NCBI RefSeq assembly: GCF_965213655.1
Contig: NZ_CBDBZT010000003.1
Span: forward strand, 1,927,733 to 1,991,732
DNA: 64,000 nucleotides
Direction of reading: 5' to 3'
Source of the DNA: Candidatus Palauibacter sp.
GTDB lineage: Bacteria; Gemmatimonadota; Gemmatimonadetes; Palauibacterales; Palauibacteraceae
The notes under the pieces are model-generated. The model was not told where the DNA came from. It made no database searches and was given only the letters and a program-made list of their open reading frames with translations. Of the stretch, positions 37,508 to 62,147 are shown in pieces. Position 1 is the first letter of the stretch, and each line of letters opens with the position of its first letter. Both the position numbers and the translations under genes were made by a program.

Positions 37508-37632
37508 TAGATGTCCGCGCGGGACCCGGCGTGCAAGCTCCCCCCTCGATCTGGTTCACGCTCGTGCGCCGCGTTAGCGTTCAGCGTGTGGGTCCCGCTG
37601 TGGGCCCGTTTTCTCCTGCTTCCGGAGGACAG

Positions 37633-38878: not shown

Positions 38879-39688
38879 TCAGGCTGATGCGCGGCGGCGG
38901 AGCCATTCCACGGTCAGGAGGAGGCCGAGGGCGAAGACGACCAGGAAGGTGGCGACCGCGAGGATCGCGGGGCTGATCTGTTCCCGGATCCCGGCCCACA
39001 TCTGGCGCGGGATCGTCCTCTGCTCCAGCCCGCCCATGAAGAGGACGACGACGACTTCGTCGAACGACGTGGCGAAGGCGAACAGGGCCCCGGAGATCAC
39101 GCCGGGGGCGATGAGCGGCAGTTGCACCGTCCGGAAGGTGCGCACGGGACCGGCGCCGAGACTGGCCGCGGCCCGCGTGAGGTTGCGGTCGAAGCCCGCC
39201 AGCGTGGCCACGACCGTGATCACGACGAAGGGCATGCCGAGAGTTGCGTGGGCCAGGATGAGTCCGAGGTGCGTCTGGGCCAGACCGACGTTGGTGTAGA
39301 AGAAGAACATCCCGGCCGCGGAGATGATCACCGGCGTGACCATGGGCGAGATCAGGAGTCCCGTGATGAAGCGGCGGGCCGGCATGGCGGGGCTCGAGAG
39401 CCCGAGCGCCGCCAGCGTGCCCAGAGCCGTCGCGAGCACCGTGGCGGAGACGCCGATCACGAGGCTGTTCACGAGGCTCCGGGTCCAGGCCTCGTTCTCG
39501 ACGATCTCCCGGTACCAGCGCAGCGACCACGCCTCGGGGTCGAGGCGCAGCATCCCCTCGGTGAAGGTGAAGTAGGGCTCCGCGTTGAAGCTCAGCGGCA
39601 CGATCACGATGATCGGCGCCACGAGGAAGATGAAGACGAGGACGCAGAAGGCGAGGTAGGCGAAGCGGCCGAGGCGGGCTCCGGTCAC
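38879..39688 (-). CDS. ABC transporter permease (PotC-like)
   Basis: GTG start at 39688. Six TM helices with the EAA-like loop …FDRNLTRAAASLGAGPVRTFRTVQLPLIAPGV…. Confidence 0.85.
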   Translation of the reverse strand: MTGARLGRFAYLAFCVLVFIFLVAPIIVIVPLSFNAEPYFTFTEGMLRLDPEAWSLRWYREIVENEAWTRSLVNSLVIGVSATVLATALGTLAALGLSSPAMPARRFITGLLISPMVTPVIISAAGMFFFYTNVGLAQTHLGLILAHATLGMPFVVITVVATLAGFDRNLTRAAASLGAGPVRTFRTVQLPLIAPGVISGALFAFATSFDEVVVVLFMGGLEQRTIPRQMWAGIREQISPAILAVATFLVVFALGLLLTVEWLRRRASA

Positions 39689-39704
39689 GGTTTCTCCGGC
39701 CTCC

Positions 39705-40898: not shown

Positions 40899-42001
40899 CA
40901 GCGCGCCAGCCAGGCGCTGAAGCGCTCGTTCAGCGCGTCCTGGTTGTCCACCCACCAGGCCCAGTCCCTCCGGAGCGCGCGCGCCAGATTGGGGGGATGC
41001 GTGGGCAGGTGCGGTCCCATCTCCACGCCCGTCTCGAGATGGGTGGTGATCAGCGGCGCGGCCGAGGCCCGCGAGGGGCCGTACGAGATCCTGCGGCCGA
41101 GGGCCGCGAGAGCCTCGGTGGTGCTGGCGAAACTCACGAGGCGCATCGCCTCCTCGAATCTCGGCGTGCCCGCGACGACGGCCAGCTGATTGATGTCCAG
41201 GACCTGTCCGTCCCAGACGATCGCGAACGGCTGGTTCTCGAGCATTTGGGCGTTGAAGATGCGGCCGTTGTAGGCCGTGCTCATGACGACCTCGCCGTCC
41301 GCGAGCATCTGGGGCGGCTGGGCGCCCGCCTCCCACCACACGACCTGGTCCTTGATCGTGTCGAGCTTGCGAAAGGCCCGATCCAGGCCCTCCGCCGTGT
41401 CCAGTAGGGCGTACACGGCCTCCGCCGGAACGCCATCCGCCAGGAGGGCGAATTCGAGATTGACCATGGGGACACGGCGCATCCCGCGGCGCCCGGGGAA
41501 CTTCTCGAGATCGAAGAAGTCGGCGATCGTCTCCGGTCTGGCGCCGGGGAAACGGCTTGTGTCATACGCGTAGATCGTGGACCAGACGACACCCCCGACC
41601 CCGCAGTCGGAGAGGGTCCCGGGCGCAAAATCCTCCGCTGCCGGCGTACCGTCCGTTCCGGCGGGCAGCAACTCCTCATCGATGTACTCCAGCAGCCCCT
41701 CGTCGCAGGCGACCGTCACTTCCGAAGCGTTGAGGTCCACGACATCCCAGTAGACGTTGCCCACTTCCACCTGGGCCCGGATCTGGGCCAGACCGCCATT
41801 GAAATCCTCGACGGCCACCCGGATCCCCGTGGCGGCGGTGAACGGTTCGTACCACGCCTCCGTGCTCGCTTTCTGATACGAGCCACCGTAGGAGACGGCG
41901 GTAATCGATTGCGCGGTCGCGGGGCCGGCGAAACATGCGAGGAGAACGGCCGTGCAGGCGGACGTGCGCGCCACGGCACGCGCGAGCGGGTCAGTTCGCA
42001 C
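40898..42001 (-). CDS. ABC transporter periplasmic substrate-binding protein (family-1 SBP), copy 2
   Basis: Signal peptide MRTDPLARAVARTSACTAVLLACFAGPATAQ. About 75% identical to the upstream SBP across its length. Confidence 0.8.
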   Translation of the reverse strand: MRTDPLARAVARTSACTAVLLACFAGPATAQSITAVSYGGSYQKASTEAWYEPFTAATGIRVAVEDFNGGLAQIRAQVEVGNVYWDVVDLNASEVTVACDEGLLEYIDEELLPAGTDGTPAAEDFAPGTLSDCGVGGVVWSTIYAYDTSRFPGARPETIADFFDLEKFPGRRGMRRVPMVNLEFALLADGVPAEAVYALLDTAEGLDRAFRKLDTIKDQVVWWEAGAQPPQMLADGEVVMSTAYNGRIFNAQMLENQPFAIVWDGQVLDINQLAVVAGTPRFEEAMRLVSFASTTEALAALGRRISYGPSRASAAPLITTHLETGVEMGPHLPTHPPNLARALRRDWAWWVDNQDALNERFSAWLAR

Positions 42002-43111
42002 GGGTCAGCCAAGCGCTGAAGCGCTCGTTCAGCGCATCCTGGTTGTCCACCCAGAATTCCCAGTCGTTCCGCAGGGCGCGCGCGATGTTGTCGGGGCTCG
42101 TCGGCATATGGGGCGCCATCTCGACGCCGGTGGCCAGGTGGGTGGTGACGAGCGGTTCTCCCGACCGGCGGGCCGGACCATAGGAAATCCGGCGCGCGAT
42201 CGCAGCCAGCGATTCTCCGGTCGTGGCGAAGGCCACGAAACGCCGCGCGTCTTCAAGGCGCGGCGTGCCCGCCACGATGCCCAGCTGGCCGTAGTCGAGA
42301 ACCTGGCCGTCCCACACGATGACGAACGGCTGCTCCTCGAGGACCTGGGCGTTGAAGATGCGGCCGTTGTAGGCCGTGCTCATCACGACCTCGCCGTCCG
42401 CCAGCATCTGGGGCGGTTGGGCGCCCGCCTCCCACCAGACGACCTGGTCCTTGATCGTATCGAGCTTGTCGAAGGCGCGGTCGAGCCCCTCCGGCGTGCC
42501 GAGCGTGGCGTACACGTCCTCGAGCGGGACCCCGTCCGCGATTAGAGCGAATTCGAGGTTCACCTGCGGCACGCGGCGCATTCCGCGACGGCCCGGGAAC
42601 TCCTCGAGGTCGAAGAAATCCGCCATCGTAGCGGGTTGCTCGCCCGGGAAGAGGTCGGCGTTGTAGGCATACACCGTGGAGTAGAAGAGCATCCCTGCCC
42701 CGCACTCACCGTGCATCTCCGGGTAGAAGTCCTCACGGGCAAGCGTCCCGTCGAGGGCCGGTGGCAGCATGTCGATGTCGATCCGCTCCAGTAGACCCTC
42801 GTCGCAGCCGCGCATCGCGTCGGCCATCTCGAGGTCCACGACATCCCAATACACGGCGCCGACATCGACCTGCGCCCGTACCTGGGCCAGCCCGCCGTTG
42901 TAATCCTCCATGTCGACGCGGATCCCCGTCTCCTCCATGAACGGGATCTGAACCGCCCCGCGATACGCGCGGCCGTAGGATCCTCCCCACGACACGGCCG
43001 TGATCGACGGTCCTTCGGGAGCCTGGGGTCCGCAGGCCTGGATGAACGCGGGAACGGCAGCCCCGACGACGAGGACCAGGGCGCGCGTACAGTGGATCGG
43101 ACGCCTCTTCT

Positions 43112-43115
<4 letters not shown>
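41991..43115 (-). CDS. ABC transporter periplasmic substrate-binding lipoprotein (family-1 SBP), copy 1
   Basis: GTG start at 43115 (VKKRRPIHCTRALVLVVGAAVPAFIQACG lipobox) with a purine-rich GGAAGGGGAAG SD. The track's 43253 start adds an R-rich artefact. Confidence 0.8.
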
Positions 43116-44245
<1,130 letters not shown>

Positions 44246-44370
44246 CTGGCGATTTCGTCTCGTTTTCCGGAATATGGGATGGTGCTGCACCCCGGTTCGG
44301 GGTGGACCAACTTGAAGCCGCCGACATCAATCCGCGAGGGCGCGCGGCCGTGGTGAGCAGAGGAGGAAAG

Positions 44371-45414
44371 ATGAAGATCAGGAATCGGACGGCGGGACGG
44401 GTCACGTGGGCGGCCTGCCTGCTCGTCCCCGTCGCGGCGTTGGCGCTGGCGGTCGGAGGAGAACCGACCGAGAAGATGGACTCGGCCTCCGCCGCGCAGG
44501 CCTTCGTCTCCCTGCTCGACGAGGCGGGACGGGGGAAGGCGCTCTTCTCTCTCGAGGACGAGGAGCGCTTCAACTGGCACTTTGTCCCGAGGTCGCGGAA
44601 CGGACTGCCGCTAGCCGACATGACGACCGAGCAGCGAGGCGCCGCGCACGATCTCCTTCAGGCCGCAATGAGCAGCCAGGGCTTTCTGAAGGCGAGCGCG
44701 ATCATCGAACTGGAGCGAATCCTCGGACTCCTCGAGGGGCGGCCCGAGCGCCGCGACCCCGAGAACTACTACGTCGCAATCTTCGGCGATCCGTCGGCGG
44801 AGGGTCCGTGGGCATGGCGGTTCGAAGGGCACCACCTCTCCCTCAACTTCTCGTCGCCTTCGGGCTTGCTCACGGTGACGGGGCCCGCGTTCATGGGCGC
44901 GAATCCGGCGCGCGTGCCATCGGGTCCGAAGGCCGGCTGGCGGCCACTGGGGCGGGAGGAAGACCTCGCCCGCGCGCTGATGCGGAGCTTCACGCCCGAC
45001 CAGCGGGAGCGTGCGACCATCGCGGCCGAGGCGCCCAGCGACATCCTCACCGGCAACGACCGCGAGGCGCGGCTCGACGCGTTCGAGGGCCTCCCTGCCG
45101 ACGCCATGACCGCCGAGCAGCGCGCGATCCTGTTCGAGATCGTGCACGAATACGTGGGGAACACGACGACGGACTTCGACTGGATGGTGCGGGTCGAGAA
45201 CGAGATTCCGGCGAGCGACATCCACTTCGCCTGGGCGGGGTCGCTGGAACCCGGCGAGGGACACTACTACCGCGTCCACGCCCCCGTCTTCCTGATCGAG
45301 TACGACAACACACAGAACGACGCCAACCACGTCCACTCGGTGTGGCGAGACCTGGAGAACGACTTCGGGGGCGACGCGCTCGCGCGCCACTACGAGGAGT
45401 CCGACCACCACTAG
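44371..45414 (+). CDS. secreted DUF3500-like protein
   Basis: ATG 44371 directly after AGGAGGAAAG; signal peptide MKIRNRTAGRVTWAACLLVPVAALALAVGG. The WRFEGHHLSLN motif is as I recall it for DUF3500. This call is from memory only. Confidence 0.55.
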   Translation: MKIRNRTAGRVTWAACLLVPVAALALAVGGEPTEKMDSASAAQAFVSLLDEAGRGKALFSLEDEERFNWHFVPRSRNGLPLADMTTEQRGAAHDLLQAAMSSQGFLKASAIIELERILGLLEGRPERRDPENYYVAIFGDPSAEGPWAWRFEGHHLSLNFSSPSGLLTVTGPAFMGANPARVPSGPKAGWRPLGREEDLARALMRSFTPDQRERATIAAEAPSDILTGNDREARLDAFEGLPADAMTAEQRAILFEIVHEYVGNTTTDFDWMVRVENEIPASDIHFAWAGSLEPGEGHYYRVHAPVFLIEYDNTQNDANHVHSVWRDLENDFGGDALARHYEESDHH

Positions 45415-45463
45415 CTAGCGGGCCGCGGCGGAGACCTCCTCCGCGGCTACGCCGGGTTCAGCC

Positions 45464-47926
45464 CTAGCGGCCGATGATGCTCAGGAAGCGGGGGTCGTCG
45501 CGTATGCTCTCGAAGTCGTCATCGTTCGGGAGCGTGCGCCGGCGTCCGGGATTCAGCTCGACCGCCCTCTCCAGAGCGTCGAAAGCGAGGTCCTCGCGGC
45601 CGGCTTCGACGAGGATCGCGGCCATCGACACCCACACGTTGTCGTTCTCGGGTGACAAGGCGGAGGCTCGCCGCGCAATCCCCGCGGCCCCGCGCAGGTC
45701 GCCGTCCCGCCGCAGCCGGGCGGCTTCGCGCAGCATCTGGCCCGAGCGGTACATGTTGAGGACGCGGCGCAGTTCGGCGAGCGGTTCGTCGTGGTCGTCC
45801 ACGCGGATGTCGACGACGCGATCGCTGTAGCCGCCGTTGACCCGCGGCGCCACGACCAGGATGGCGCCGGACTGCATCCCGCGCGCGTCGCCGCCGGCCG
45901 CCTGGGCAGCGTCGAGCGCGTCCATGAGCCGCTCCGCCAGCGGGCCGGTGGACGATTCGAACGAGGCCGCCATCGCGTCGACGACTTCGGGCCCGGTGAG
46001 GATGTTCCCCTGCGCGCAGTAGTCCACGCCACACTTGTGACCCTTCCAGTCGCTCGCGCCGGTGCCGGTCCAGGCCGCAGTCCGTCCCTGCTGGTCGAGG
46101 ATCGAAACCTGGCGGCGATCCCGGCCCTCGTCGCTCCCCACCATCATCTCGAGCGCTTCCTCGGGTGAGTAGCCGGCCTGGAGGAGTTGGATGCCGATCG
46201 CCCCGTACATGGGGTTCGCGGCGGCCTGGTGCGCGATGATCACGAGTCCGCCCTTCGCGTGCATGGCGCGATTCCCTGCCCCGAACGCCTTCGACTGCAC
46301 GCCCATCCCCAGTTCGCCGGTCGCGGGATCGCGCCCGATGATCGAGAAGGTCCCCAGGTAGTTCGGGTCGAGGAGGTTCTCGCTGTTCCCGGTGGCCGGA
46401 ACCATGCGCGGCTCGGGGACCGCCTCGGCCGAAGCCCAGGCGCCGCCCAGCGCCCGATGGACCGCCAGCCTCGCCAGGGCCAGATCCCGCGTCGCACCCG
46501 CCAGCGCCGCCTCCACGTTCAGGAGCGTGCGCAGCGCGTCGAGGTAGTCGGTGTAACCCACGACCCCCGACTCGTATCGCTGCGACTGCAGGTCCCTGGT
46601 AGCCCGCGCTTCCTCGCGCTGGGAGGCGAGGAAGGCGTGCCGCCGGGTCTCGTTCTCCAAGCCGGCGAGCGCCGTTTCCACTTCGTTCACCGCCGTGACC
46701 ACCGCCCGCCCGTATGTCGCCGCGGCCTCACCAAAGCGGCCTTCGGCAAGCGCGAGATTGTTCCGGAGCCGGCCGCCCTGGAAGATGGGCGCAATCAAGT
46801 TCGTGATCAGATTCGTGAACCACTGTTGCGCGTTGAAGAGTTCGCCGGCGTCGGCGCTGGCCAGCCCGATGGAACCGGACAGCGAGAGCGACGGAAGCAA
46901 TTGGGCGCGGCGTGCGCCGATACTGTAGCGCGCCGCATCGAGGCGCTGCCCGGCAGCCCTCACGTCGGGCCGCTGGAAGAGGAGATCCGCCGGAACCCCG
47001 GCGGGGACGGGATCCGCCGCGAGCTCCGGCGTGAGAGCTTCGGGCAGGAGCGCCTCCACATCCTCCCGATAGCCGCCCATCAGAACGGCCAGTCGAGCTT
47101 CGGCGTTCGTGAGCTGCGTCTCAAGTTGTGGCAGCCCCGCCTGCGTGTTCCTGAGGTCCTGGCGAACCAGGGACAGCGTCCAGGAGTCGATGAGGCCCCG
47201 GTCGTAGCGCGTCGAAGCCAGCGACTCGCGTTCGAGCAGCACGTCCACCGTCTCGGTCGCCAACTCGGTCTGCCGCCGCAGGCTGACGATGTCGAAATAC
47301 GTGGTGATGGTCTCGGCCAGGATGCCGATGCGCGCCGCATGGAAATCCGACTCCGAGGCCAGGTATTCCGAGCCCGCGGCCCGGGCGTCGTTGCGGGCGC
47401 GTCCCCAGAAATCCAGCTCGTAGGCGAAATCCGCGCTGACCGAATACGTCGTCAGCTCGATTCTCTCGGGAAGCGCGAAACCCGCGATCGTATCTCCCGG
47501 ACTGCCCAGCCCGAGGGCCTGGATCTGGGCGCCGATGCCGGCGTCCGTCGGCGTGTCGATGTCGTTGACGGCGGCGCTCGCCCCCACGCTGGGGAAGAGG
47601 TCGGCCCGCGCCATGCGCGCCCTGGCGCGAGCCTGTTGAACGCGCGCGACGCCGGCGGCAAGGTCGAAATTGGAGGCGAGCACGGAATCGACGACGGTGT
47701 TGAGTACCGGGTCCCGGAACGTCGTCCACCACTCCAGCGGCTCGTACGTCCCCGGCTGCAGCCTGGCCGAGAAATCGTCCGGCATCTCCGCCACCGGCTC
47801 CGGAAGGGACGGCCCCGGAGCCAGGGAACAGGCGGAGAGCAGCAAGAGCGGGGCGGCCCGCCCCAGTCTCGCCAGTCTCGCCAGTCTCGCCAGTCTCGCC
47901 ACAAGCGGTACTCCCCTGCGCGTCAC
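45464..47926 (-). CDS. fusion: NodT/TolC-type outer-membrane-factor lipoprotein (N-terminal ~500 aa) + DUF1028 Ntn-hydrolase-like domain + short TPR-like tail
   Basis: GTG start at 47926; lipobox LLLLSACSLAPG. OMF coiled-coil/beta-barrel repeats end with the family-typical …LAVHRALGGAW at about aa 497. Then …NYLG|TFSIIGRDPATGELGMGVQSKAFGAGNRAMHAKGGLVIIAHQAAANPMYG…, the DUF1028 signature whose stand-alone members begin Met-Thr-Phe-Ser-Ile. No stop codon separates the two parts. Confidence 0.75.
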   Translation of the reverse strand: MTRRGVPLVARLARLARLARLGRAAPLLLLSACSLAPGPSLPEPVAEMPDDFSARLQPGTYEPLEWWTTFRDPVLNTVVDSVLASNFDLAAGVARVQQARARARMARADLFPSVGASAAVNDIDTPTDAGIGAQIQALGLGSPGDTIAGFALPERIELTTYSVSADFAYELDFWGRARNDARAAGSEYLASESDFHAARIGILAETITTYFDIVSLRRQTELATETVDVLLERESLASTRYDRGLIDSWTLSLVRQDLRNTQAGLPQLETQLTNAEARLAVLMGGYREDVEALLPEALTPELAADPVPAGVPADLLFQRPDVRAAGQRLDAARYSIGARRAQLLPSLSLSGSIGLASADAGELFNAQQWFTNLITNLIAPIFQGGRLRNNLALAEGRFGEAAATYGRAVVTAVNEVETALAGLENETRRHAFLASQREEARATRDLQSQRYESGVVGYTDYLDALRTLLNVEAALAGATRDLALARLAVHRALGGAWASAEAVPEPRMVPATGNSENLLDPNYLGTFSIIGRDPATGELGMGVQSKAFGAGNRAMHAKGGLVIIAHQAAANPMYGAIGIQLLQAGYSPEEALEMMVGSDEGRDRRQVSILDQQGRTAAWTGTGASDWKGHKCGVDYCAQGNILTGPEVVDAMAASFESSTGPLAERLMDALDAAQAAGGDARGMQSGAILVVAPRVNGGYSDRVVDIRVDDHDEPLAELRRVLNMYRSGQMLREAARLRRDGDLRGAAGIARRASALSPENDNVWVSMAAILVEAGREDLAFDALERAVELNPGRRRTLPNDDDFESIRDDPRFLSIIGR
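47864..47899 (-). repeat. perfect 9-bp tandem repeat x4 (cagtctcgc) encoding (ARL)4 in the n-region of the OMF signal peptide
   Basis: The repeat is seen directly in the sequence. It encodes …VARLARLARLARLGRA…. Confidence 0.7.
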
Positions 47927-47933
47927 CGCGTGC

Positions 47934-48644
47934 TCAGGGCGCGAGACTGAAGCCGAACACGAGGTGCGCGCGCTCCTGGTCGGGATTCAGGATGTAGGCG
48001 ACGCTCACCGGCACAGCGAAGGTCTCCGTGATCGCGAGGTCCTTGCTCGCCGTGATGCCCACGTTGACGAGAGCAGCCTCCTCGGTGCCGTAGAAGTCGC
48101 TCTCGCCGCCCACGAACCCCATGTGCAGCCCGACACCCACTCCCGAGACCTCGAAGGGCACGCCCACCTCCGCGTACAGCACGCTGCTCTCGGTGAGCAG
48201 GCCGCCGAAAAGGGAGATCGGAAAAGTCTCCGGACCCGTGAAGCCGAGCGACATCTCCACCGTGTGCGCCTCGCCGTCCCCGAATCCGGCGTCGGCGTCG
48301 GGCGAGGGGAAGTAGTAGTCGGTGATGCCGACCGCGACGGAGAGGCCGGATGAGGCCGTCACCGTGTAGGTCGCCCAGAGATCGTTCTCGTTCGCGGAGG
48401 CGCCCGACGCGGAGATGGAATACGAACCCCATGCGCCGAACTCGAGCCCTCCCGCCGCGAAGGTGAGCGCCGGTTGCACCGCCATGGATTCCCCGAAGTC
48501 GACGCCGCGCCAGACGTAGCGGCTGACGACGTCGGCCCCGATGGAGGCGGACTGGCCCCACACGGGGGCGGCGAAGACGAAGAGGGCCGCGACGGCGAGG
48601 CCAGGGCCCCGGAACCGATTCGAATCAGTGCGGATTACGGACAC
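47934..48644 (-). CDS. small outer-membrane beta-barrel protein (hypothetical)
   Basis: GTG start at 48644 with a GAGAGAGGAGAAG SD. It overlaps the transglutaminase 3' end by 10 nt. Signal peptide …GLAVAALFVFAAPVWGQ, alternating amphipathic beta-strands, C-terminal …LVFGFSLAP. It lies 7 nt upstream of the OMF fusion gene. Confidence 0.55.
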   Translation of the reverse strand: MSVIRTDSNRFRGPGLAVAALFVFAAPVWGQSASIGADVVSRYVWRGVDFGESMAVQPALTFAAGGLEFGAWGSYSISASGASANENDLWATYTVTASSGLSVAVGITDYYFPSPDADAGFGDGEAHTVEMSLGFTGPETFPISLFGGLLTESSVLYAEVGVPFEVSGVGVGLHMGFVGGESDFYGTEEAALVNVGITASKDLAITETFAVPVSVAYILNPDQERAHLVFGFSLAP

Positions 48645-49507
48645 GATTCTTCTCCTCTCTCGATGGTGACCCGGGTACGGAGCATGGACTCCGCCGAACC
48701 CCGGAAGACGCCGCGCGTGGGCGGAACGTCGGCATAATCGCGGCCCACCGCGACCCTTATGTGACGCACGTCACACTGTGTGTCGTTGGTCGGATCGAAG
48801 CCGATCCACCCCACCCCGGGGAGCCAGCTCTCGACCCACGCGTGGCTTTCGCCGGTCGTAACGTCACCTTCGCGCTCAAGATCGGGACCAAGGTAGCCGG
48901 ATACGTAACGGGTCGGGATCCCCCAGCCCCGGAGGATCGAAGCCATCACGTGGGCGTAGTCCTGGCACACACCCTCCCGGCTTTCAAGGATGCGCTCGAT
49001 CGGCGAATCGACGGCGGTCGTACCTGGAATATAGTCAAACAGCTCGTGCAGCCGACTCCGCAGGGCAACGGCGGTCGCAAGCGGATCGTCCCCGCGCTCG
49101 AGACCGCAGCTACTGATGAAGTCGGCGAGGACCGGCGAAGCACGGACGAAACGGCTCGGCTGCAGCATGAGGCCGAGGTCGGGAGTGCCCGCCTCGTCGC
49201 CGAGCCGGGCCCAGCCATCTTTTCCGACCTCGATGGGCGACTCCGGTATCGGCCCCACCTCGACGGTCGAACGCCCGACAATCGAGAGGCGGCGATGTGT
49301 CCCGGGCCGATCGAAGAAGTGCCCGCGGTTGTGGAAGGGTCCCTCGAACTCGAACACGGCCCCGGACGGATCAGTCTCGATCTCGAACCCGCGCACGACC
49401 TGAGTGCGGTCCTGCGCCGGGTGCAGAAAGAGCGTCATCACGGACGCCTGAACCGGCGCACTGTACACGAACTCGATCGCGTGCTCGATCGTGTAGCGCG
49501 CGATCAT
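48635..49507 (-). CDS. transglutaminase-family protein (Bact_transglu_N + transglutaminase core)
   Basis: Internal ATG 49507 (MIARYTIEHAIEFVYSAPV, the typical Bact_transglu_N start) overlaps the alpha-E stop (ATGA). Cys-His-Asp triad in GVCQDYAHV…, HAWVESW and FDPTND. The track extension to 49930 is an R/G-rich artefact. Confidence 0.85.
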   Translation of the reverse strand: MIARYTIEHAIEFVYSAPVQASVMTLFLHPAQDRTQVVRGFEIETDPSGAVFEFEGPFHNRGHFFDRPGTHRRLSIVGRSTVEVGPIPESPIEVGKDGWARLGDEAGTPDLGLMLQPSRFVRASPVLADFISSCGLERGDDPLATAVALRSRLHELFDYIPGTTAVDSPIERILESREGVCQDYAHVMASILRGWGIPTRYVSGYLGPDLEREGDVTTGESHAWVESWLPGVGWIGFDPTNDTQCDVRHIRVAVGRDYADVPPTRGVFRGSAESMLRTRVTIERGEESCP

Positions 49508-50487
49508 GCCGGGAGCCCCACGGCCACCGGGTAATCGACGTACCTGGCCTGGACAAGGTCGTGCAGGGCCCGGCTGTCGCGTGTCAGAGAGTCGAAGACC
49601 TCCCCGGGCGCAACAGGGGACGCGGCGTCGGCTTCGCCCATTTCGAGTTCGATGGTCGCCGCCATGCGAAGCACCATGCGATGGGGCGGCGCGAGCGGAG
49701 GGCGTCCGCCCGCGGGATCGATCCCCCCCAGCACGGACTCGATGCGATCGGTCGCGTAGCGCAGGGAACGGGCGACCTCCGGGTTTCGTATCAGAAAGCC
49801 GAGCACGGGGCCACGGTGCAGCGTGAGCGACCGGTCCCGGCGGTAGGGTTCGAAAGCACCGCACACGCGCAGGAGATCGGCCCAGGAGAGGACGAGGCCA
49901 TCGCCCTCCGGCCGGGCGATCCGGTCCCACACATCGAGCAGTACGATCTGCTGCTGCAGACGCTCGACGTACCGGCCCAGTTCAAGGAAGCGCCACGCAT
50001 CGTCCCGCGCCATGTTGGCGTCCACGACGCCCGCCAGCAGACGGAGGCGGTCGATGGCCTGGCTCACGAGAGCCACCGGTCCCTCACCCCACACGTCGGC
50101 GAACTCCGTCTCCTGAAGCCAGAGGTATCCCTGGTTCAGGCACACCCACACGCGCAGGGGCAGCCGGGGACGGATCTCCCTCGCGTTCTCCCTCGCCATC
50201 CCCCAGCACGAGATCATCGACGCCGGATTCGTCGTGTCCTCGACGAGACCGCCCGTCAACGTGTAGGCATCCGCGATGAGGAAAGCTTCGGCCTCGTCCA
50301 CATCGGCCGGCGCCTCGGGCGGGGACTGGCTCAGCGCCCGGTACACGACGTGCCATCCGAGGGCGATTTCGTCGGCGTCCGTATCCACGAGCCGTGCCAA
50401 CTGATACTCGAGCAGGCGGGCCGTGTTCTCGGTCCGCTCCGCGTAGCGGCCCAGCCAGTAGAAGTTCGCCGCCATCCGGGCTAGCAT
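49504..50487 (-). CDS. alpha-E domain protein (DUF403)
   Basis: MLARMAANFYWLGRYAERTENTARLL is the hallmark alpha-E N-terminus. Confidence 0.85.
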   Translation of the reverse strand: MLARMAANFYWLGRYAERTENTARLLEYQLARLVDTDADEIALGWHVVYRALSQSPPEAPADVDEAEAFLIADAYTLTGGLVEDTTNPASMISCWGMARENAREIRPRLPLRVWVCLNQGYLWLQETEFADVWGEGPVALVSQAIDRLRLLAGVVDANMARDDAWRFLELGRYVERLQQQIVLLDVWDRIARPEGDGLVLSWADLLRVCGAFEPYRRDRSLTLHRGPVLGFLIRNPEVARSLRYATDRIESVLGGIDPAGGRPPLAPPHRMVLRMAATIELEMGEADAASPVAPGEVFDSLTRDSRALHDLVQARYVDYPVAVGLPA

Positions 50488-50511
50488 CGTCCGTCGCCTC
50501 TCTCCCGGCCG

Positions 50512-52011
<1,500 letters not shown>

Positions 52012-52035
52012 TGAACGGTACTCGTCGAGGGACGC

Positions 52036-53445
52036 TCAGTCCGCGTCGCGGAAGTCGTTGTCGTCGTCCGGATCCACCATGAGGACGAATTCGGGATAGG
52101 CATCGAGCCCGAGTTCCGCCGCATCCTGGCCGATGCTCTCGACGCTTCGCGACACGCGTACACCCATCGCCCTGTCCAGTACCATCCAGAGGATCCATGA
52201 AGTGGAAAAGGCGAATGCGCCGACGGCCGCGACGCCGGCCAGCTGCACCCAGAAATCGCCGCCGGCCGCGATGCAGGTGGCCAGAGTGCCCCACACTCCG
52301 GCGAAGAGGTGCGCCGGCACCGCGCCGACCACGTCGTCGATCCGCCTGACCTCCAGCACCTTCAGTCCGATCATGCACAGGAAGGAGCCGACGGCGCCGA
52401 TCAGGATCGCCCACAGCGAGTTCGTGATGTTCGGTCCCGCCGTGATTGCCACCATGCCGGAGATTGCCCCGTTGAGCGTGGCGAAGAGGTCGACCCGGCC
52501 GAGCAAAGGCCTGGAGAGGCAGAGCGCCGTGATAACACCGGCCGCGGCAGCGAGGTTCGTGTTCACGAGGATGTTGCTCATCGCAACCGCGTTGGCGACG
52601 CCCGAGAGGGCGAGTTCGGAGCCGCCGTTGAAGCCGAACCATCCCATCCAGAGGATGAACACGCCCAGCGTGACGGCGGGGATGTTCGACGGAGGGGTCA
52701 GCTTGACGGAGCCATCCCTTTTGAACTTGCCCCAGCGCGGACCCACGACGAGCGCGCCGGCGAGCGCGGCCCAGCCGCCTGTCGAGTGCACGATCGTCGA
52801 GCCGGCGAAGTCCGTGAAGCCCAGCTGGGCGAGCCAGCCGCCGCCCCACGTCCACGCGCCGACGATGGGGTAGATGATCGCAGTGAGCCCGGCGACGAAG
52901 ACGAAGAAGGTCCACAGCTTGACGCGCTCGGCCAGCGCCCCGGAAACGATCGAGGCGGTCGTGGCGACGAAGACCATCTGGAAGAACCAGTCGGACATGA
53001 CGGCGTAGCCGTTCTCCGTCACGGCGGCGGCTGCCCCTTCGTTCCCGCCGAGGAGGGCCACTTCGTCGGCCGACGGACCGTAGAGGAAGCCGATCCTCCC
53101 GATCAGATCGCCGACATCCACGTACATGAGATTGTAGCCGATGACGTAGTAGGTGAGGCCGGCGATCGCGTAGAGTCCGATGTTCTTCATGCAGATCATC
53201 GAAGCGCTCTTCGACCGCACCGAACCGGCCTCGAGCATCGTGAACCCGGCACACATCCACATCACCAGCACGCCCCAGACGAGGAACGAGTACGTGTTGA
53301 GGACGAAGCCGAGATCTCCAATGCCGTCCTGCGCGGCAAGCGCCGCTGGTGCGAGTAGGAGACTCGCGCCGGAAAGCAGCGCGATGGAGGCGAGATTCCT
53401 TCCCGCCGTTAACCGGCGGAACCAGCGTATTCGATGGGTGCTCAC
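52036..53445 (-). CDS. amt: ammonium transporter (Amt family)
   Basis: GTG start at 53445 with an AGGAAGGAG SD; cleavable signal peptide. Eleven-TM Amt pattern (…SGALAERVKLWTFFVFVAGLTAIIYPIVGAWTWGGGWLAQLGFTDFAGSTIVHSTGGWAALAGALVVGPR…). It lies 25 nt upstream of the ATP-grasp gene, same strand. Confidence 0.9.
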   Translation of the reverse strand: MSTHRIRWFRRLTAGRNLASIALLSGASLLLAPAALAAQDGIGDLGFVLNTYSFLVWGVLVMWMCAGFTMLEAGSVRSKSASMICMKNIGLYAIAGLTYYVIGYNLMYVDVGDLIGRIGFLYGPSADEVALLGGNEGAAAAVTENGYAVMSDWFFQMVFVATTASIVSGALAERVKLWTFFVFVAGLTAIIYPIVGAWTWGGGWLAQLGFTDFAGSTIVHSTGGWAALAGALVVGPRWGKFKRDGSVKLTPPSNIPAVTLGVFILWMGWFGFNGGSELALSGVANAVAMSNILVNTNLAAAAGVITALCLSRPLLGRVDLFATLNGAISGMVAITAGPNITNSLWAILIGAVGSFLCMIGLKVLEVRRIDDVVGAVPAHLFAGVWGTLATCIAAGGDFWVQLAGVAAVGAFAFSTSWILWMVLDRAMGVRVSRSVESIGQDAAELGLDAYPEFVLMVDPDDDNDFRDAD

Positions 53446-53626
53446 AGCGGCTCCTTCCTCAACAGGTTTCCAGCCCGATCGTGGCCTTCCGCGACCCCCG
53501 GCTTAGGTTGCGTCCCTACTCCGCATCGCGCAATGGGCCCGGTGGCCAGTAGCCGAACGGCCGGAGCCGATTATCTTCGGGTGTGACCGGACTGCACCGG
53601 AATCTTCGACGAGAGGGCAGATCACT

Positions 53627-54685
53627 ATGTGGAAACGCTCCAGCGGAGTAGCCGCCGGACTCGGGCTGGGACTTACGCTGTTCGCGGTTCACCCCCTCCT
53701 TGCGCAGGAAATCCGGGCGCGTGGCGGCTCCACCGTCACCGTCGGCGCCAGGGTTCAGGCTCAGTACGAGGCCTCGAGCGTCGACGAGACGCCTTCCTCC
53801 TTCTTCGTCCGCCGCGCATGGGTGACGATCGACGGGCAGCTGAACGATCTCGTCGGAGCCCGGGCCCAGTTCAACATCGACGGAGCATCGGTGCTGGAGG
53901 CGTACCTTGAATTCACACCCAGCGAGGCGCTCGAGGTCCAGCTGGGGCAGTTCAAGAAGGGGATGTCGTATTTCTGGCTCGTGCCGAACTCCTGGCTCCC
54001 GATCATCGAACGGGACGCCAGGGTCACAGGCGTGGATCACTGCCCCGGCGTCGGCAGCGTATGCACGTTCGGCCGTCTCACGGGCGCGCTGGGCCTGGAC
54101 AACTACGAGCCGGGCATCCTCGCGCAGGGGCGCGTGAGCGAGCGCTTCGGCTACCGCTTCACGCTCACCAACGGGGAGGGGATCGGGAACAAGGACGTGA
54201 ACACCGGAAAGTCGGCCTCGGGCCAGCTCTCGCTCTTCCCGACGGGAGGCGACACGCGGGTGTCGGCCTATTTCGCCCTGGACGAGACGCTCGACAGCCA
54301 GGGGGAGACGATGGGTGTTCCGGCGGTCGGAGCGGAAGTCGAACTCGGCACATGGCTGGGCGGCCCCCACCTCATCGCCAACGTCCTCCAGGGTCGTAAC
54401 TGGAAGCTGAACGATGACGCGAAGTTCTCCGCTTTCCAGATGATGGCCTTCTGGTATCTGCCGATGGCACCCGAGTCCCGGATCGCCGGGATCGAACCCA
54501 TGCTTCGGGTGAGCTGGGTCGATTCGGGCGCGGAGGATCCGGAGAAGGTGACGGGGACGGTGATCACGCCCGGCGTGATGTTCTACTTCGTGGGCCGGAA
54601 CGGAATCTCCACCAACGTGGACTTCTACAGCTCAGGAGGCCGGTCGGACTTCTCCTGGAAGGTCCAGGCGTTCGCTTTCTTCTGA
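53627..54685 (+). CDS. outer-membrane beta-barrel porin-like protein (putative)
   Basis: Signal peptide MWKRSSGVAAGLGLGLTLFAVHPLLAQE, alternating beta-strand pattern, C-terminal aromatic …WKVQAFAFF. Divergent from amt. Confidence 0.6.
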   Translation: MWKRSSGVAAGLGLGLTLFAVHPLLAQEIRARGGSTVTVGARVQAQYEASSVDETPSSFFVRRAWVTIDGQLNDLVGARAQFNIDGASVLEAYLEFTPSEALEVQLGQFKKGMSYFWLVPNSWLPIIERDARVTGVDHCPGVGSVCTFGRLTGALGLDNYEPGILAQGRVSERFGYRFTLTNGEGIGNKDVNTGKSASGQLSLFPTGGDTRVSAYFALDETLDSQGETMGVPAVGAEVELGTWLGGPHLIANVLQGRNWKLNDDAKFSAFQMMAFWYLPMAPESRIAGIEPMLRVSWVDSGAEDPEKVTGTVITPGVMFYFVGRNGISTNVDFYSSGGRSDFSWKVQAFAFF

Positions 54686-54811: not shown

Positions 54812-55147
54812 CTACTTGAAGCTCGCCTGAGCCTCGTCGACCGTGTCGAAGACCTTGGTCAGCCGGACGAACCCGCTGACTTCCAGCACCTCGAGGATGT
54901 TCTCCGGTACCTGGCAGAGGGCGAGTCCCCCGCCGGCCTGGTTGGTCTTCCGGATGGCGATCAGCAGCGCCCGGAGCCCGGCACTGCTGATGTAGCGCAG
55001 GCTCCCGCAGTCCAGAACCAGATTGGTCGCTCCCCCATCGATGATGCCGGAGAGCTCACCGTCGAAGTCCTTGGCGTTGCTGGAGTCTACGCGGCCGCTG
55101 ACCACCCCCACGGCGGTGTCTCCGGAATAGCTGGTCTCAATGTTCAT
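54812..55147 (-). CDS. STAS-domain anti-sigma-factor antagonist (RsbV/SpoIIAA-like)
   Basis: 111 aa; …LVLDCGSLRYISSAGLRALLIAIRK… conserved phosphorylatable Ser context. Confidence 0.8.
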   Translation of the reverse strand: MNIETSYSGDTAVGVVSGRVDSSNAKDFDGELSGIIDGGATNLVLDCGSLRYISSAGLRALLIAIRKTNQAGGGLALCQVPENILEVLEVSGFVRLTKVFDTVDEAQASFK

Positions 55148-55581
55148 TCTGGCGGTTCCTCGCTTCCGGCAGCCCCCAGCGGCTGCGTCAGGGTCAAGCA
55201 GTTGAATCCATCGACCCGCTCGTACGCAAGCGTGTCAATAAAAGACTTCGTAAGGTGGATGCCAAGACCTCCAATGGGACGATCCTCCGCCGCGAGAGTC
55301 AAATCCGGCTCCGCAGCGTCCTCCAGCGGGTTGAAGGGTTGGCCGTTGTCTCGAATCGTAAGCTCAATCTCGGCTTCCTCGAGACGAATGTCCACCGTGA
55401 TGACCGGATCCTCCGTCACTCCTTCGAAACCATACGAGATGATGTTCGCCAGCAACTCGTCCAACGAGAGCTGGAAGCGGAAGATGACATCCTGCGAGAG
55501 CGCGTTCTCGACGCAGAAGCGCTCGACCGCGTCCACCACGCGACGTGGTTCGCTCGGATCCGGCTTAACGGCAATCCGCAC
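55144..55581 (-). CDS. anti-sigma regulatory factor (RsbW/SpoIIAB-like GHKL Ser/Thr kinase)
   Basis: HATPase_c N and G boxes (IRDNGQPFNPLED…RPIGGLGIHLTKSFID). 4-nt overlap with the STAS gene. Confidence 0.75.
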   Translation of the reverse strand: MRIAVKPDPSEPRRVVDAVERFCVENALSQDVIFRFQLSLDELLANIISYGFEGVTEDPVITVDIRLEEAEIELTIRDNGQPFNPLEDAAEPDLTLAAEDRPIGGLGIHLTKSFIDTLAYERVDGFNCLTLTQPLGAAGSEEPPE

Positions 55582-55815
55582 TCCCGTTCCGCTCCTGTTG
55601 GCTGACGGCCCCCGTTTTCGCGGGCGCCCTGGCTGCCGAAGCTACCCGTGCTCCCATAGCCTGAGATATTGCGCGCCCGGTGCCCGTTTGCGGAGATTCC
55701 CGCACCGTGGCCCCGGGACCGCCCCCAGTGAATCGACAGGGACGATGACGATTGGAGCCGGTTCCAGACAAGTGCAGGAGTTCATGACTCACGGTTCACC
55801 TCAGCCGAGGCCTTG

Positions 55816-56973
55816 ATGCCGAAGATCCTTGTAGTAGACGACGAGCCCGATCTGGAGTTGCTGCTCCGGCAGAAATTCCGGCGCCGGGTCCGCGCGGGCG
55901 AACTCACGCTGGTCTTCGCCCAAAACGGGGTCGAAGCTCTTCAGAAACTTGACGAACATGAGGATGTGGACCTCGTCCTCTCCGACATCAACATGCCGGA
56001 GATGGACGGGCTGACGCTCCTCGGGCAGTTGAGCGAACTCGAACGGGACCTGCGCGCGGTGATGGTCACGGCCTACGGGGACATGAAGAACATCCGCACC
56101 GCCATGAACCGCGGCGCGTTCGACTTCGTCACCAAGCCGATCGATTTCACCGACCTGGACACCACGATCCAGAAGACGCTCGAACACCTGGAGGTGATGC
56201 GGGCGGCGCTTCGCGATCGGGATGCACTGGTCGCGTTACGTCAGGAACTCGGGGTGGCGGCGCGGATGCAGGAGTCGATCCTGCCCACGAACTTTCCCGA
56301 GGACCCCCGTTACGACCTTCACGCATGGATGACGCCGGCCCGCGAGGTGGGAGGAGACTTCTACGACTTTTTCCGCCTCGAAGAGGGCCAGATGGCGATT
56401 GTGATGGCCGATGTCTCGGGAAAGGGCGTGCCGGCCGCTTTCTTCATGATGGTGAGCCGTACGCTGCTGAAGGGGACGGCGATCGGCGAGACGGACCCCT
56501 CGCTGTGCCTGAAGGAGGTGAACCAACTCCTCATCAACGAGAACGAAGAGTCGATGTTCGTGACTCTGTTCTACACCAAGTTCAATCCCGAGAACGGTCA
56601 CGCCACGTTCGCGAACGCCGGGCACAACCTCCCGTTCCTCATCAAGGCGTCGGGCGAGGTCGAGCCGATCGTCTCCGAGCCGGGTCTCGTCCTCGGGATC
56701 ATGTCGGGATTCGAGTTTCCGAAAGGGTCCGTCACCCTCGAGCCGGGCGACGCGATCTTCTTCTACACGGATGGCGTGACGGAAGCCATGGATGAAGACG
56801 GCGTCGAACTCGGAGAGGCCGAGTTGGCCGAGGTTCTGCGGCAATGCGCCGGCCATACCGCGGAGGATATCAACGTCCACGTGATACGGGCGGTACAGGA
56901 GCACGCCGGGGAAGCGCCCCAATCGGATGACATCACCTGCCTGACACTGCGGTACCTGGGGGCGCCTGACTGA
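55816..56973 (+). CDS. response-regulator receiver domain fused to a PP2C-type (SpoIIE/RsbU-like) phosphatase
   Basis: ATG 55816 (the track's TTG at 55813 is 1 codon earlier). REC with ILVVDDEPD…DLVLSDINMPEMDG…KP. PP2C motifs GGDFYDF, MADVSGKG, FYTDGVTEA. Confidence 0.85.
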   Translation: MPKILVVDDEPDLELLLRQKFRRRVRAGELTLVFAQNGVEALQKLDEHEDVDLVLSDINMPEMDGLTLLGQLSELERDLRAVMVTAYGDMKNIRTAMNRGAFDFVTKPIDFTDLDTTIQKTLEHLEVMRAALRDRDALVALRQELGVAARMQESILPTNFPEDPRYDLHAWMTPAREVGGDFYDFFRLEEGQMAIVMADVSGKGVPAAFFMMVSRTLLKGTAIGETDPSLCLKEVNQLLINENEESMFVTLFYTKFNPENGHATFANAGHNLPFLIKASGEVEPIVSEPGLVLGIMSGFEFPKGSVTLEPGDAIFFYTDGVTEAMDEDGVELGEAELAEVLRQCAGHTAEDINVHVIRAVQEHAGEAPQSDDITCLTLRYLGAPD

Positions 56974-58154
56974 TGCGCCGCTGGCTGTTCCTGCTCGCAG
57001 CCGCCCTGGCGGCCGGCACGCTGCCCGGCCCTTCCGCCTCCGCCCAGCAGGGTGGATCCGCGACCGAGGGCGTGTACGCCGACTCCATCGTCTTCGGCCA
57101 GTCCGCCGCGCTGGACGGCCCCGCCGGCGAACTGGGCCGCAACATGAACCTCGGCATCCGTGCAGCCTTCGAGGAGGCCAATCGCGAGGGAGGGGTCCAC
57201 GGACGCCTGCTCCGGCTTCGGGCGCGCGACGACGGCTACGAACCCGAGCAGGCGGCCGTCAACACGCGCGAACTCATTGCGCTGGGCGTGTTCGGCCTCA
57301 TCGGCGCGGTCGGAACCCCTACATCGAACGCCGCCGAGCCCGTCGCGAGGGAATTCGCCGTACCCTATATCGGGGCCTTCACCGGGGCCGGACTTCTGAG
57401 ACAGCCGGACCAGCGCCATGTCGTCAACCTCCGCGCGTCATACGATCAGGAGACCAAGGAGATGGTGGACCGGCTCGTCGAGGATCTCGGATTCCGCCGG
57501 ATCGCCGTCTTCTACCAGAACGACAGCTACGGCCAGGCCGGCCTGAACGGGGTTCGCCGCGCAATGGACAGCCGGCGCATGGAGCTCGTCAGCGAGGCCG
57601 CGTACATGCGGAACACGCTGGCCGTGAAGCAAGGCCTCCTCGATATCCGGGAGGGTAATCCGCAGGCCGTGATCATTATCGGGGCCTACGCCCCGGTAGC
57701 CCACTTCATCAGGTGGGCGCGGAAGATCGGCCTCGACGCGGTGTTCGTGAACATCTCGTTCGTGGGGAGCAGCGCGCTCCTCGACGATCTTGGTCGCGCG
57801 GGAGACGGCGTGGTGGTGACTCAGGTCGTGCCCTTCCCCGGAGATACGAACATCCCGGCCGTGGCTCGCTACCAGGCGGCCCTGCGCGAAGTCGACGGGA
57901 GGGCGACCCCCGGATTCGTATCTCTGGAGGGCTACCTGGCGGGACGGCTCGTCGTGGAGGCGCTGCGGGCCGGGGACGCCGCCACACCTCCGACCCGGGC
58001 GTCCTTTCTCCGCACGCTAAACGATTCGGGACCCATCGACCTCGGCGGCTTTGTGGTGGAATACGCCGAAGAGGACAATCAGGGCTCGGATCTCGTCTTC
58101 CTCACGGTGATTCGAGGAGGACGCTTCGTCCCGGTGACGCGCCTCTCCGGATGA
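56973..58154 (+). CDS. periplasmic binding protein (Peripla_BP_6 / LivJ-like), probable co-sensor of the downstream kinase
   Basis: Signal peptide MRRWLFLLAAALAAGTLPGPSASAQQ. The start overlaps the RR-PP2C stop (TGATG) and the stop overlaps the kinase start (ATGA). Confidence 0.75.
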   Translation: MRRWLFLLAAALAAGTLPGPSASAQQGGSATEGVYADSIVFGQSAALDGPAGELGRNMNLGIRAAFEEANREGGVHGRLLRLRARDDGYEPEQAAVNTRELIALGVFGLIGAVGTPTSNAAEPVAREFAVPYIGAFTGAGLLRQPDQRHVVNLRASYDQETKEMVDRLVEDLGFRRIAVFYQNDSYGQAGLNGVRRAMDSRRMELVSEAAYMRNTLAVKQGLLDIREGNPQAVIIIGAYAPVAHFIRWARKIGLDAVFVNISFVGSSALLDDLGRAGDGVVVTQVVPFPGDTNIPAVARYQAALREVDGRATPGFVSLEGYLAGRLVVEALRAGDAATPPTRASFLRTLNDSGPIDLGGFVVEYAEEDNQGSDLVFLTVIRGGRFVPVTRLSG

Positions 58155-62146: not shown

Positions 62147-62147
62147 C

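Follow-up and report, generated by a model that had tools for sequence, protein, structure and literature searches.

The Anbu operon, reportedly described by Valas and Bourne in 2008, Iyer et al. in 2009, Fuchs et al. in 2017 and Piasecka et al. in 2018, is the described system closest to the gene cluster presented here. [quoted passage not shown] The cassette is widespread in bacteria, has been sampled structurally and responds to nitrogen starvation. A homologous Anbu-type operon was reportedly the most up-regulated one in nitrogen-limited Pseudomonas putida (note added in proof of PMC3235984; see also PMC5666114 and PMC6376114), the genes I35_5080-83 of Burkholderia cenocepacia show a 6- to 9-fold response that depends on NtrC and sigma-54 (PMC5491218), and the abundance of triad domains co-varies with that of urea genes in marine metagenomes (PMC3597751). 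We analysed a stretch of 64,000 nucleotides from Candidatus Palauibacter sp., a marine member of the Gemmatimonadota (contig NZ_CBDBZT010000003.1, positions 1,927,733 to 1,991,732; 'the window'). On its minus strand, at 45464-53445, the triad sits in a six-gene cluster headed by the ammonium transporter gene amt, in which a gene for an outer-membrane beta-barrel follows the triad. This amt-headed, Gcw_chp-closed, Anbu-less cassette is a new contextual variant of the CP-ATP-grasp/alpha-E/transglutaminase family. The genes are, in the order of the operon:

52036-53445, minus strand: amt, ammonium transporter, first gene, with an N-terminal signal sequence
50512-52011, minus strand: CP-ATP-grasp amidoligase, cytoplasmic
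49504-50487, minus strand: alpha-E (PF04168), obligate partner of the ATP-grasp protein
48635-49507, minus strand: transglutaminase-like papain-fold enzyme (PF08379 and PF01841), cytoplasmic
47934-48644, minus strand: outer-membrane beta-barrel of the Gcw_chp/TorF family, carrying a signal peptide; the conserved core ends with this gene
45464-47926, minus strand: fusion of an outer-membrane factor (OMF), DUF1028 and TPR, 820 codons; last gene of the cluster

From amt to the OMF gene, the spacings are 24, 24, -4, -10 and 7 nt, as read from the listing of open reading frames (ORFs) and from the junctions themselves. The ATP-grasp and alpha-E genes are 24 nt apart, the alpha-E and transglutaminase genes share a 4-nt ATGA overlap, and the transglutaminase and barrel genes overlap by 10 nt, the barrel having a GTG start behind the ribosome-binding site GAGAGGAGAAG. 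Within the cluster, nothing resembling a terminator turned up on the minus strand in a consensus scan. The packing of six minus-strand genes with overlaps or gaps of at most 25 nt, which the original prediction had described as operon-like, is thus real, and Pfam and NCBIfam profile searches bore out all of its domain identifications.

How much of this arrangement is kept in relatives? Using the ATP-grasp protein as query against one genome per species (GTDB), we collected 80 loci from many phyla and searched their ORFs with the window's proteins. Gene calls in these loci follow simple heuristics based on ORFs and third-position G+C content (GC3), all comparisons rest on genomes of uncultured organisms, and samples of 80 loci each are not phylogenetically independent. 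In this neighbourhood survey, of the kind that the original prediction had suggested, amt lies directly upstream and the Gcw_chp gene directly downstream of the triad in all ten Gemmatimonadota loci of the scan (L005-L009, L011, L013, L014, L021 and L023), and the same amt-triad-Gcw_chp order occurs in four contigs reached through other proteins (L001, L085, L171 and L172). The OMF or DUF1028 was found in only 2 of the 80 loci, both from Palauibacter; both parts are missing from an otherwise identical cluster in eight of the ten Gemmatimonadota loci, and also in L171 and L172. Outside Palauibacter the genes that follow Gcw_chp are variable (Lnb_N, MobA-like, XdhC), which indicates that the conserved unit ends at the barrel. 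The earlier idea that six genes make up one pathway therefore stands for the link between amt and the triad, conserved in Gemmatimonadota, and falls for the OMF and DUF1028, absent from most clusters. Judged from these sequence comparisons, the cluster appears to be built of layers of different age, the OMF and DUF1028 having accreted onto a conserved five-gene core.

The gene company of the triad points to nitrogen. In L009, L021, L171 and L172, some 2.3-2.5 kb upstream of amt, there is a glnA gene; a metagenome-assembled genome of Binatia (L012) has the order triad-glnA-amt; and L026, a Dehalococcoidia locus, has amt as the first of a series of genes on one strand, in which a sensor cassette, described below, is followed by ATP-grasp and alpha-E. 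At least three gene orders in three phyla (Gemmatimonadota, Binatia and Dehalococcoidia) thus join this ATP-grasp subfamily to amt and/or glnA. The presence of amt and a pore in one operon across a Gemmatimonadota lineage, and of a glnA-amt neighbour in another phylum, provides independent genomic evidence that the cassette serves to acquire or recycle nitrogen rather than for generic proteolysis. On balance we lean towards reading the cluster as a nitrogen-scavenging or nitrogen-limitation operon, with amt, the triad and the barrel as its core and the last gene as an accretion. The linkage of the genes is observed directly; their regulation by nitrogen in Gemmatimonadota would follow by analogy with the proteobacterial cases.

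The proteins of the core are compatible with such a role. Amt covers positions 3-399 of the 399 of PF00909 (322 bits) and scores 507.8 bits against TIGR03644, the 'marine subtype', whose cutoff is 514. As the original prediction had noted, its usual glnK partner is missing: tblastn with an Escherichia coli GlnB sequence found no P-II (glnK/glnB) homologue in the window or in 90 fetched loci. The ATP-grasp protein matches the full-length models PF14403 (510 bits) and PF04174 (452 bits), and aligns end to end with PDB 3N6X (E = 1e-154), whose depositor name, 'putative glutathionylspermidine synthase', is an unverified annotation. For alpha-E (PF04168, 213.6 bits) the structure search found no solved relative. 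The transglutaminase-like enzyme has an intact Cys181/His222/Asp238 set, aligned with the triad residues of 6G49. None of the three triad proteins has a signal peptide. The barrel reaches 46.5 bits with PF09694 (Gcw_chp/TorF; gathering cutoff 24) and 26.1 bits with the stricter TIGR02001, below its cutoff of 47.15. Its AlphaFold model (mean predicted local distance difference test, pLDDT, 84.5) has 12 strands and an N-terminal helix, and the Foldseek neighbours of this model are outer-membrane barrels (FapF, OmpG, PcoB, KdgM and COG4313). A literature search on the Gcw_chp/TorF family found nothing relevant in the library used.

We can picture the core working as follows. The operon would be switched on when nitrogen is scarce, as are the homologous cassettes of Pseudomonas and Burkholderia, and the barrel and Amt would pass ammonium across the outer and inner membranes. 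In the cytoplasm, the ATP-grasp enzyme together with alpha-E would form an amide bond through an acyl-phosphate intermediate, acting on a putative substrate, and the Cys-His-Asp transglutaminase-like enzyme would hydrolyse or transfer the amide product. The triad would then be a step of nitrogen recycling or assimilation, and not a step towards an exported product.

Comparison with described systems brings out what is particular to this operon. It shares with the Anbu operon the same three families in the same order, overlapping or near-abutting genes, an equally enigmatic biochemistry and an association with nitrogen limitation, which is experimental in Pseudomonas and Burkholderia and here comes from gene linkage alone. 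However, the window operon has no Anbu, a gene that is frequent though not universal in such operons; it is headed by amt and has an outer-membrane barrel closing it, and it has no Ntn hydrolase nearby other than DUF1028, a secreted enzyme and a late arrival. The B. cenocepacia genes I35_5080-83 likewise encode DUF404/407 (CP-ATP-grasp), DUF403 (alpha-E) and transglutaminase-like proteins, and the nitrogen-limitation regulon to which they belong also holds glnA, P-II, urea and pot transporter genes (PMC5491218). There, the nitrogen link is regulatory, among dispersed genes, and depends on NtrC and sigma-54; here it is physical, the triad and amt sharing an operon, and no promoter of the sigma-54 type was recognised upstream of amt. 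The parallel with the glnK-amtB operon is that Amt stands in the first line of the response to ammonium limitation, in an operon with proteins of nitrogen status; the difference is that neither the window nor the related loci have a P-II gene, the triad sitting beside amt instead.

The ends of the transcription unit were also inspected. Two intergenic features delimit the cluster:

53446-53626, no strand assigned: divergent intergenic region upstream of amt, likely to hold the operon promoter
45415-45463, no strand assigned: GC-rich stem-loop between convergent genes, possibly a bidirectional terminator without a U-tract

The amt gene begins with GTG, preceded by a strong Shine-Dalgarno sequence, GAGGAAGGAG. 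A promoter-like motif, TTGCG(N)-N16-17-TA(T/C)nTT, recurs upstream of amt in L007, L008, L011, L013, L014 and L023; Palauibacter sequences retain TTGCGC and have ACGCAACCTAA at the expected -10 position, the -10 element being unclear in the window. A sigma-70 consensus scan, with a consensus that is not calibrated for this phylum, gave no minus-strand match. We rejected a sigma-54 promoter, as the sole GG...GC candidate is spaced by 16 nt and not 12, and also a conserved regulator-binding site, since k-mer enrichment across relatives returned GC-rich noise besides the promoter-like motif. No riboswitch or other RNA element, such as the glnA RNA, was found upstream of amt, there being no Rfam match at the gathering threshold or at E<=1. 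At the other end, the stem-loop folds at -36.5 kcal/mol with a z-score of only -1.3 against shuffles; being no better than shuffled sequence, it was not retained as an intrinsic terminator after the last gene.

The history of the last gene is best read from the places where its parts occur apart. In this cluster, among the loci examined, the OMF was seen in Palauibacter alone (L001, L005 and L006). Like NodT/OprM-type outer-membrane factors of RND systems, it scores above the TIGR01845 cutoff (286.3 against 210.05 bits), has a lipobox cysteine (...LLLLSAC33S...) and shows PF02321 in two stretches, the two OEP repeats; its closest paralogues, at 64-71% identity, belong to OMF-MFP-RND operons (for example L002 and L003). 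Unlike them, the window's OMF is an orphan without adaptor or pump nearby, and is fused at its C terminus to an Ntn hydrolase and TPR. For DUF1028-TPR, we inspected six contexts of orthologues outside Palauibacter (L085-L090). L085 has amt-triad-Gcw-DUF1028, L086 has DUF1028 beside a SusC/SusD pair, and in L087 and L088 it stands in unrelated contexts. In L089 (82%) and L090 (78%), DUF1028 lies alone between Amidohydro_1/DUF305 and beta-lactamase/Aldo-keto reductase genes, the flank of L090 continuing with Aminotran_4 and GSDH. In the window the same genes stand on either side of the entire region, Amidohydro_1 and DUF305 at 60485-62792 and beta-lactamase, Aminotran_4 and GSDH at 35446-38850. 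The gene resident at this chromosomal site is thus DUF1028. Around it, the sensor cassette, porin, amt-triad-Gcw unit, OMF, DUF3500 gene and pot-type importer are present or absent. In one contig of 3.31 Mb, about 0.9 Mb separates amt-triad-Gcw, at 3.02 Mb, from DUF1028, at 2.13 Mb. DUF1028-TPR, a secreted Ntn hydrolase, thus held its site independently of the cluster, and a NodT-type OMF, a paralogue of RND channels, was inserted in front of it in Palauibacter.

How did the two become one protein? The fused gene comprises:

46412-47926, minus strand: NodT/TolC-type OMF part, a lipoprotein (TIGR01845, two OEP repeats, lipobox Cys33)
46349-46414, minus strand: fusion junction ...PRMVPATGNSE/NLLDPNYLG/T526, site of a deletion of about 90 nt and of a predicted self-cleavage at Gly525/Thr526
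45464-46351, minus strand: DUF1028-TPR part, predicted to be periplasmic (DUF1028 at 45770-46351, TPR at 45473-45712)

The fused 820-aa allele, with full OMF, DUF1028 and TPR, is represented by about a dozen protein clusters that are independent of one another (88-95% identity), and it is also present in a complete chromosome (L005). An assembly or frameshift artefact is ruled out by the many independent assemblies and by the in-frame deletion in the DNA alignment. In L001 (80% identity), two genes with 52 nt between them encode the OMF (505 aa) and DUF1028-TPR (334 aa), the latter having a signal peptide of its own. Split alleles persist at 90-95% identity (P0014, P0015 and L006), and within this protein family the fusion is seen only at 88% identity or above. 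Aligned with the split alleles of L006 and L001, the fused DNA lacks about 90 nt, in which the split alleles have the stop codon of the OMF gene and, for DUF1028, the start codon and signal peptide (...GNSE/EGGR-stop...MKRRSV.../NLLDPNYLGT). The fusion is a young, strain-level one, polymorphic among close strains; in some of them, a deletion of about 90 nt removed the stop codon of the OMF together with the signal peptide of DUF1028. Even a striking fusion and tight translational coupling can stem from recent gene accretion. The same gene holds a perfect 9-bp tandem repeat of 4.3 copies (47863-47901), which is translated as (ARL)n within the n-region of the OMF's lipoprotein signal peptide; P0014 has a single ARL and other close relatives a different N terminus, which makes it a strain-specific expansion.

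The DUF1028 part of the fusion matches PF06267 with 219.5 bits over residues 526-719 and is followed by a TPR end (NF047558). All stand-alone DUF1028-TPR homologues begin with a Sec signal peptide and a short propeptide that ends in LG/T(F/Y)SII. Thr526 falls on position 1 of the Pfam model and is matched in the alignment by the N-terminal Thr of PDB 2IMH; it is invariant in 39 homologues. The LG/T motif thus looks like the signature of an Ntn hydrolase that cleaves itself at Gly-1/Thr1. One DUF1028-TPR homologue, P0146 (470 aa), has a second DUF1028 domain after the TPR, starting ...WFG/TFSIIAVD, and such an internal Ntn domain could be activated only by self-cleavage. Because the motif is conserved behind the signal peptide and because of the tandem domains of P0146, we infer autoproteolysis at Gly525/Thr526. 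The hydrolase would reach the periplasm on the lipoprotein signal of the OMF and be freed there by this cleavage, so that the loss of its own signal peptide would be tolerated. Once released, DUF1028 might act as a periplasmic amidase or peptidase, an activity compatible with nutrient scavenging. The OMF::DUF1028 protein is a natural 'polyprotein' that may reveal whether DUF1028 self-cleaves. A literature search on DUF1028 found nothing relevant in the library used.

The structure model of DUF1028, covering 45467-46414 (pLDDT 88), matches 2IMH (SPO2555) with E = 9e-14 and a TM score of 0.77 normalised to the target. With 2IMH and with proteasome beta subunits it shares the alpha-beta-beta-alpha Ntn fold and an invariant Thr at position 1 after Gly. 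Cytoplasmic members of the 2IMH type, however, expose this Thr by removal of Met1, whereas the window's clade is secreted, with a short propeptide and a TPR tail, and is embedded here at residue 526. After 2IMH and generic TPR proteins, the next solved folds are Anbu (5NYW), the Mycobacterium tuberculosis proteasome beta subunit and HslV. This weak similarity of the model to Anbu curiously echoes the partnership of Anbu with the triad, and is at odds with the separate compartments and with synteny. In the Caulobacteraceae locus L034, a gamma-glutamyltranspeptidase gene follows the triad (4088-5611); its product is another periplasmic self-processing Ntn hydrolase.

The genes immediately around the cluster are:

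53627-54685, plus strand: Porin_O_P-like outer-membrane porin, divergent from amt (PF07396, 22.4 bits against a cutoff of 20.9)
44302-45414, plus strand: DUF3500 gene (Pfam), convergent, downstream border of the cluster
38879-44290, minus strand: PotA-type ABC importer with ATPase, binding protein and two permeases (TIGR01187, 365.5 against 355.6; SBP_bac_8; two BPD_transp_1)

Porin_O_P-like orthologues hold the same position beside amt in L001, L005-L008 and L011. The pot genes follow the cluster in L001, L005, L006 and L085 as in the window; they lie beyond the convergent DUF3500 gene in the window, L001, L005 and L006, and in L085 they directly follow DUF1028 and a His_Phos_1 gene on the same strand. 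In Acidobacteriota, a class-V aminotransferase gene (PF00266) abuts ATP-grasp on the same strand, in the position that amt takes in Gemmatimonadota, with a 33-nt gap in L018 (2569-3873) and an overlap of about 4 nt in L025 (8589-9941).

Several points weigh against reading the cluster as a nitrogen operon with an accreted last gene. Outside Gemmatimonadota, most triads of this subfamily (in Caulobacteraceae, Planctomycetota and others) have no amt nearby; the region upstream of amt has no recognisable NtrC/sigma-54 or NtcA-type site; and 'nitrogen recycling' would give the triad a role, not a reaction. The accretion itself may be questioned. The coupling of the OMF and DUF1028 to the core is tight (7 nt in the window, 9 nt in L001) and persists across Palauibacter species at 80-95% identity, and in L085 DUF1028 lies 17 nt after the porin (Gcw_chp) gene without any OMF. 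DUF1028 may thus have been truly recruited for a function, and its model does resemble Anbu, the proteasome and HslV, albeit in a weak match (E about 2e-3, TM 0.3-0.45).

Could all six genes then serve a single pathway, as the original prediction proposed, from ammonium import through an amide or peptide-like ligation and a processing step to exit across the outer membrane, for secretion or envelope modification? Translational coupling, the seven-gene or fused six-gene order kept in Palauibacter species (OMF 80-95% identical) and the position of DUF1028 close behind the porin in L085 would fit such a route. We nevertheless consider it unlikely, since the OMF and DUF1028 are missing from eight of ten Gemmatimonadota scan loci and from L171 and L172, and DUF1028 keeps its chromosomal position with or without the cluster. 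Moreover, the 48 window ORFs scanned include no inner-membrane exporter and no periplasmic adaptor that a self-contained import-ligate-process-export route could use, and the ABC system next to the cluster has binding proteins and is an importer. The triad proteins lack signal peptides and are cytoplasmic, DUF1028 is secreted, and the two therefore work in different compartments; together with synteny and the unlinked loci, this argues against a path from ligase to Ntn hydrolase to OMF exit. The same evidence bears on a further thought of the original prediction, which had loosely, and as speculation, likened the pairing of ligase and Ntn hydrolase to ligase/peptidase tagging systems. The remark was apt, as the classic partner of the triad is an Ntn hydrolase, Anbu (PMC5666114, PMC6376114). 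If DUF1028 had taken the place of Anbu, which is absent here from an operon that classically has it (PMC3235984), the cluster would be an Anbu-like tagging or degradation system. The Gly/Thr site, like that of proteasome beta subunits, and the nearest non-family folds of the model, Anbu, proteasome and HslV, agree with this substitution; it remains very improbable, given that DUF1028 and all its close homologues are secreted whereas the triad has no export signals, that the linkage is limited to Palauibacter and one other lineage, and that the fold similarity is weak (TM 0.3-0.45). Pfam searches of the six cluster proteins, the flanking genes and 30 neighbour ORFs from related loci gave no match to the proteasome family, and as none of these 30 neighbours around the 80 loci is proteasome-like, the subfamily appears to work generally without an Ntn partner.

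The chemistry of the core also admits another reading, in which amines or polyamines would be used as nitrogen source by ligation and later hydrolysis, in the manner of glutathionylspermidine synthetase/amidase or of the Puu pathway: the ATP-grasp enzyme would acylate an imported amine, which the papain-fold enzyme would later release. The depositor's name for the best PDB match, the PotA-type importer downstream of the cluster in the window, L001, L005, L006 and L085, and an amine oxidase gene at 33800-35155 are in line with this. Yet the name of 3N6X is an unverified annotation, the pot genes are absent from other Gemmatimonadota clusters and are separated from this one by a convergent gene in the window, and the operon itself encodes neither an oxidase nor a dehydrogenase step, and we regard a polyamine route as improbable. 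A more sceptical view, that there is no functional relationship and that nothing but synteny inherited within a single bacterial order keeps even amt and the triad together, has in its favour that the Gemmatimonadota loci are not phylogenetically independent and that, outside them, most triads of the subfamily have unrelated neighbours (TamA, class-V aminotransferase, CoA-transferase). To this view, too, we give little credence, because at least three gene orders in three phyla link the ATP-grasp subfamily to amt and/or glnA and because control by nitrogen limitation has been published in Proteobacteria (PMC5491218, PMC3235984). The nitrogen-scavenging or nitrogen-limitation operon thus remains the reading that we prefer.

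What might sense nitrogen in these bacteria? Beyond the divergent porin, the window carries a sensor and partner-switch cassette (54812-60454):

54812-55147, minus strand: STAS protein (PF01740), with a phosphorylatable Ser in ...YISSAGL... (ISSAG motif)
55144-55581, minus strand: RsbW-like HATPase_c_2 kinase (PF13581)
55813-56973, plus strand: REC-PP2C phosphatase (PF07228 and PF00072)
56973-58154, plus strand: Peripla_BP_6 binding protein (Pfam)
about 58151-60454, plus strand: HAMP histidine kinase (Pfam)

An orthologous cassette lies within 10 kb of ATP-grasp/alpha-E in 16 of the 80 scan loci, in several phyla (among them L012, L017-L020, L022, L025, L026 and L040), and each of the 16 belongs to the 36 loci that resemble the window most. 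Orthologues across phyla score 420-460 bits for the REC-PP2C protein and 400-440 bits for the binding protein. Relative to ATP-grasp/alpha-E, the cassette occurs in at least five gene orders. In Gemmatimonadota it is divergent and upstream of the operon; in Acidobacteriota, RsbW-STAS comes directly after the transglutaminase gene; in Binatia and a 'Candidatus Azophilus' locus the order is ATP-grasp, alpha-E, RsbW, STAS, PP2C, binding protein and kinase; in Dehalococcoidia it is STAS, PP2C, RsbW, binding protein, kinase, ATP-grasp and alpha-E; and in L012 the cassette is on the opposite strand after glnA-amt. A reverse scan of metagenome contigs with the REC-PP2C protein yielded 80 loci, ten of them with the binding protein, and found no ATP-grasp or alpha-E gene in the available flanks; a marine-type amt was directly upstream in one locus, and a DAO-type oxidase was found in two. 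This empty reverse test makes the link between sensor cassette and triad one-sided and weakens the case. The cassette is a mobile sensing unit, often but not always found with this ATP-grasp subfamily and amt.

Its parts are those of the TorT/TorS and LuxP/LuxQ sensors and of the RsbU/RsbV/RsbW switch (for example HsbR/HsbA). Unlike switches of the RsbU/V/W type, it has no sigma factor gene in or beside it, the nearest ECF sigma factor being 33 kb away. A literature search for a connection between partner switches and the triad found no description in the library used, and as far as we could find, the recurrent placement of the sensor cassette beside CP-ATP-grasp/alpha-E is apparently undescribed. 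It is conceivable, if doubtful, that the triad would be an output or co-regulated arm of an undescribed nitrogen-status pathway in Gemmatimonadota, Acidobacteriota, Binatia and Chloroflexi, running from the binding protein through the HAMP kinase and REC-PP2C to STAS/RsbW, beside amt/glnA and in place of the GlnK/NtrBC logic of Proteobacteria. If this were true, the triad would be under the control of the partner switch, be it directly or by way of a sigma factor, which would offer a handle on its function. The recurrent sensor cassette is the fresh and most promising lead of the window as to how the triad is controlled.

Some observations further afield concern the lifestyle and the wider gene content of these organisms. 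A 1438-aa protein of the window (22445-26761, minus strand) has both leucine-rich repeats and Big_2 domains, and a related genome encodes a large ankyrin-repeat protein (L086, 2388-4304); both are eukaryote-like repeat proteins. The NCBI species names irciniicola, poriticola and rhopaloidicola in the genus point to sponge or coral hosts. Finally, a 799-aa ORF at 3161-5560 on the minus strand combines a fatty-acid desaturase domain with a weak match (28.8 bits) to the nucleotidyltransferase of GlnE, the glutamine synthetase adenylyltransferase.

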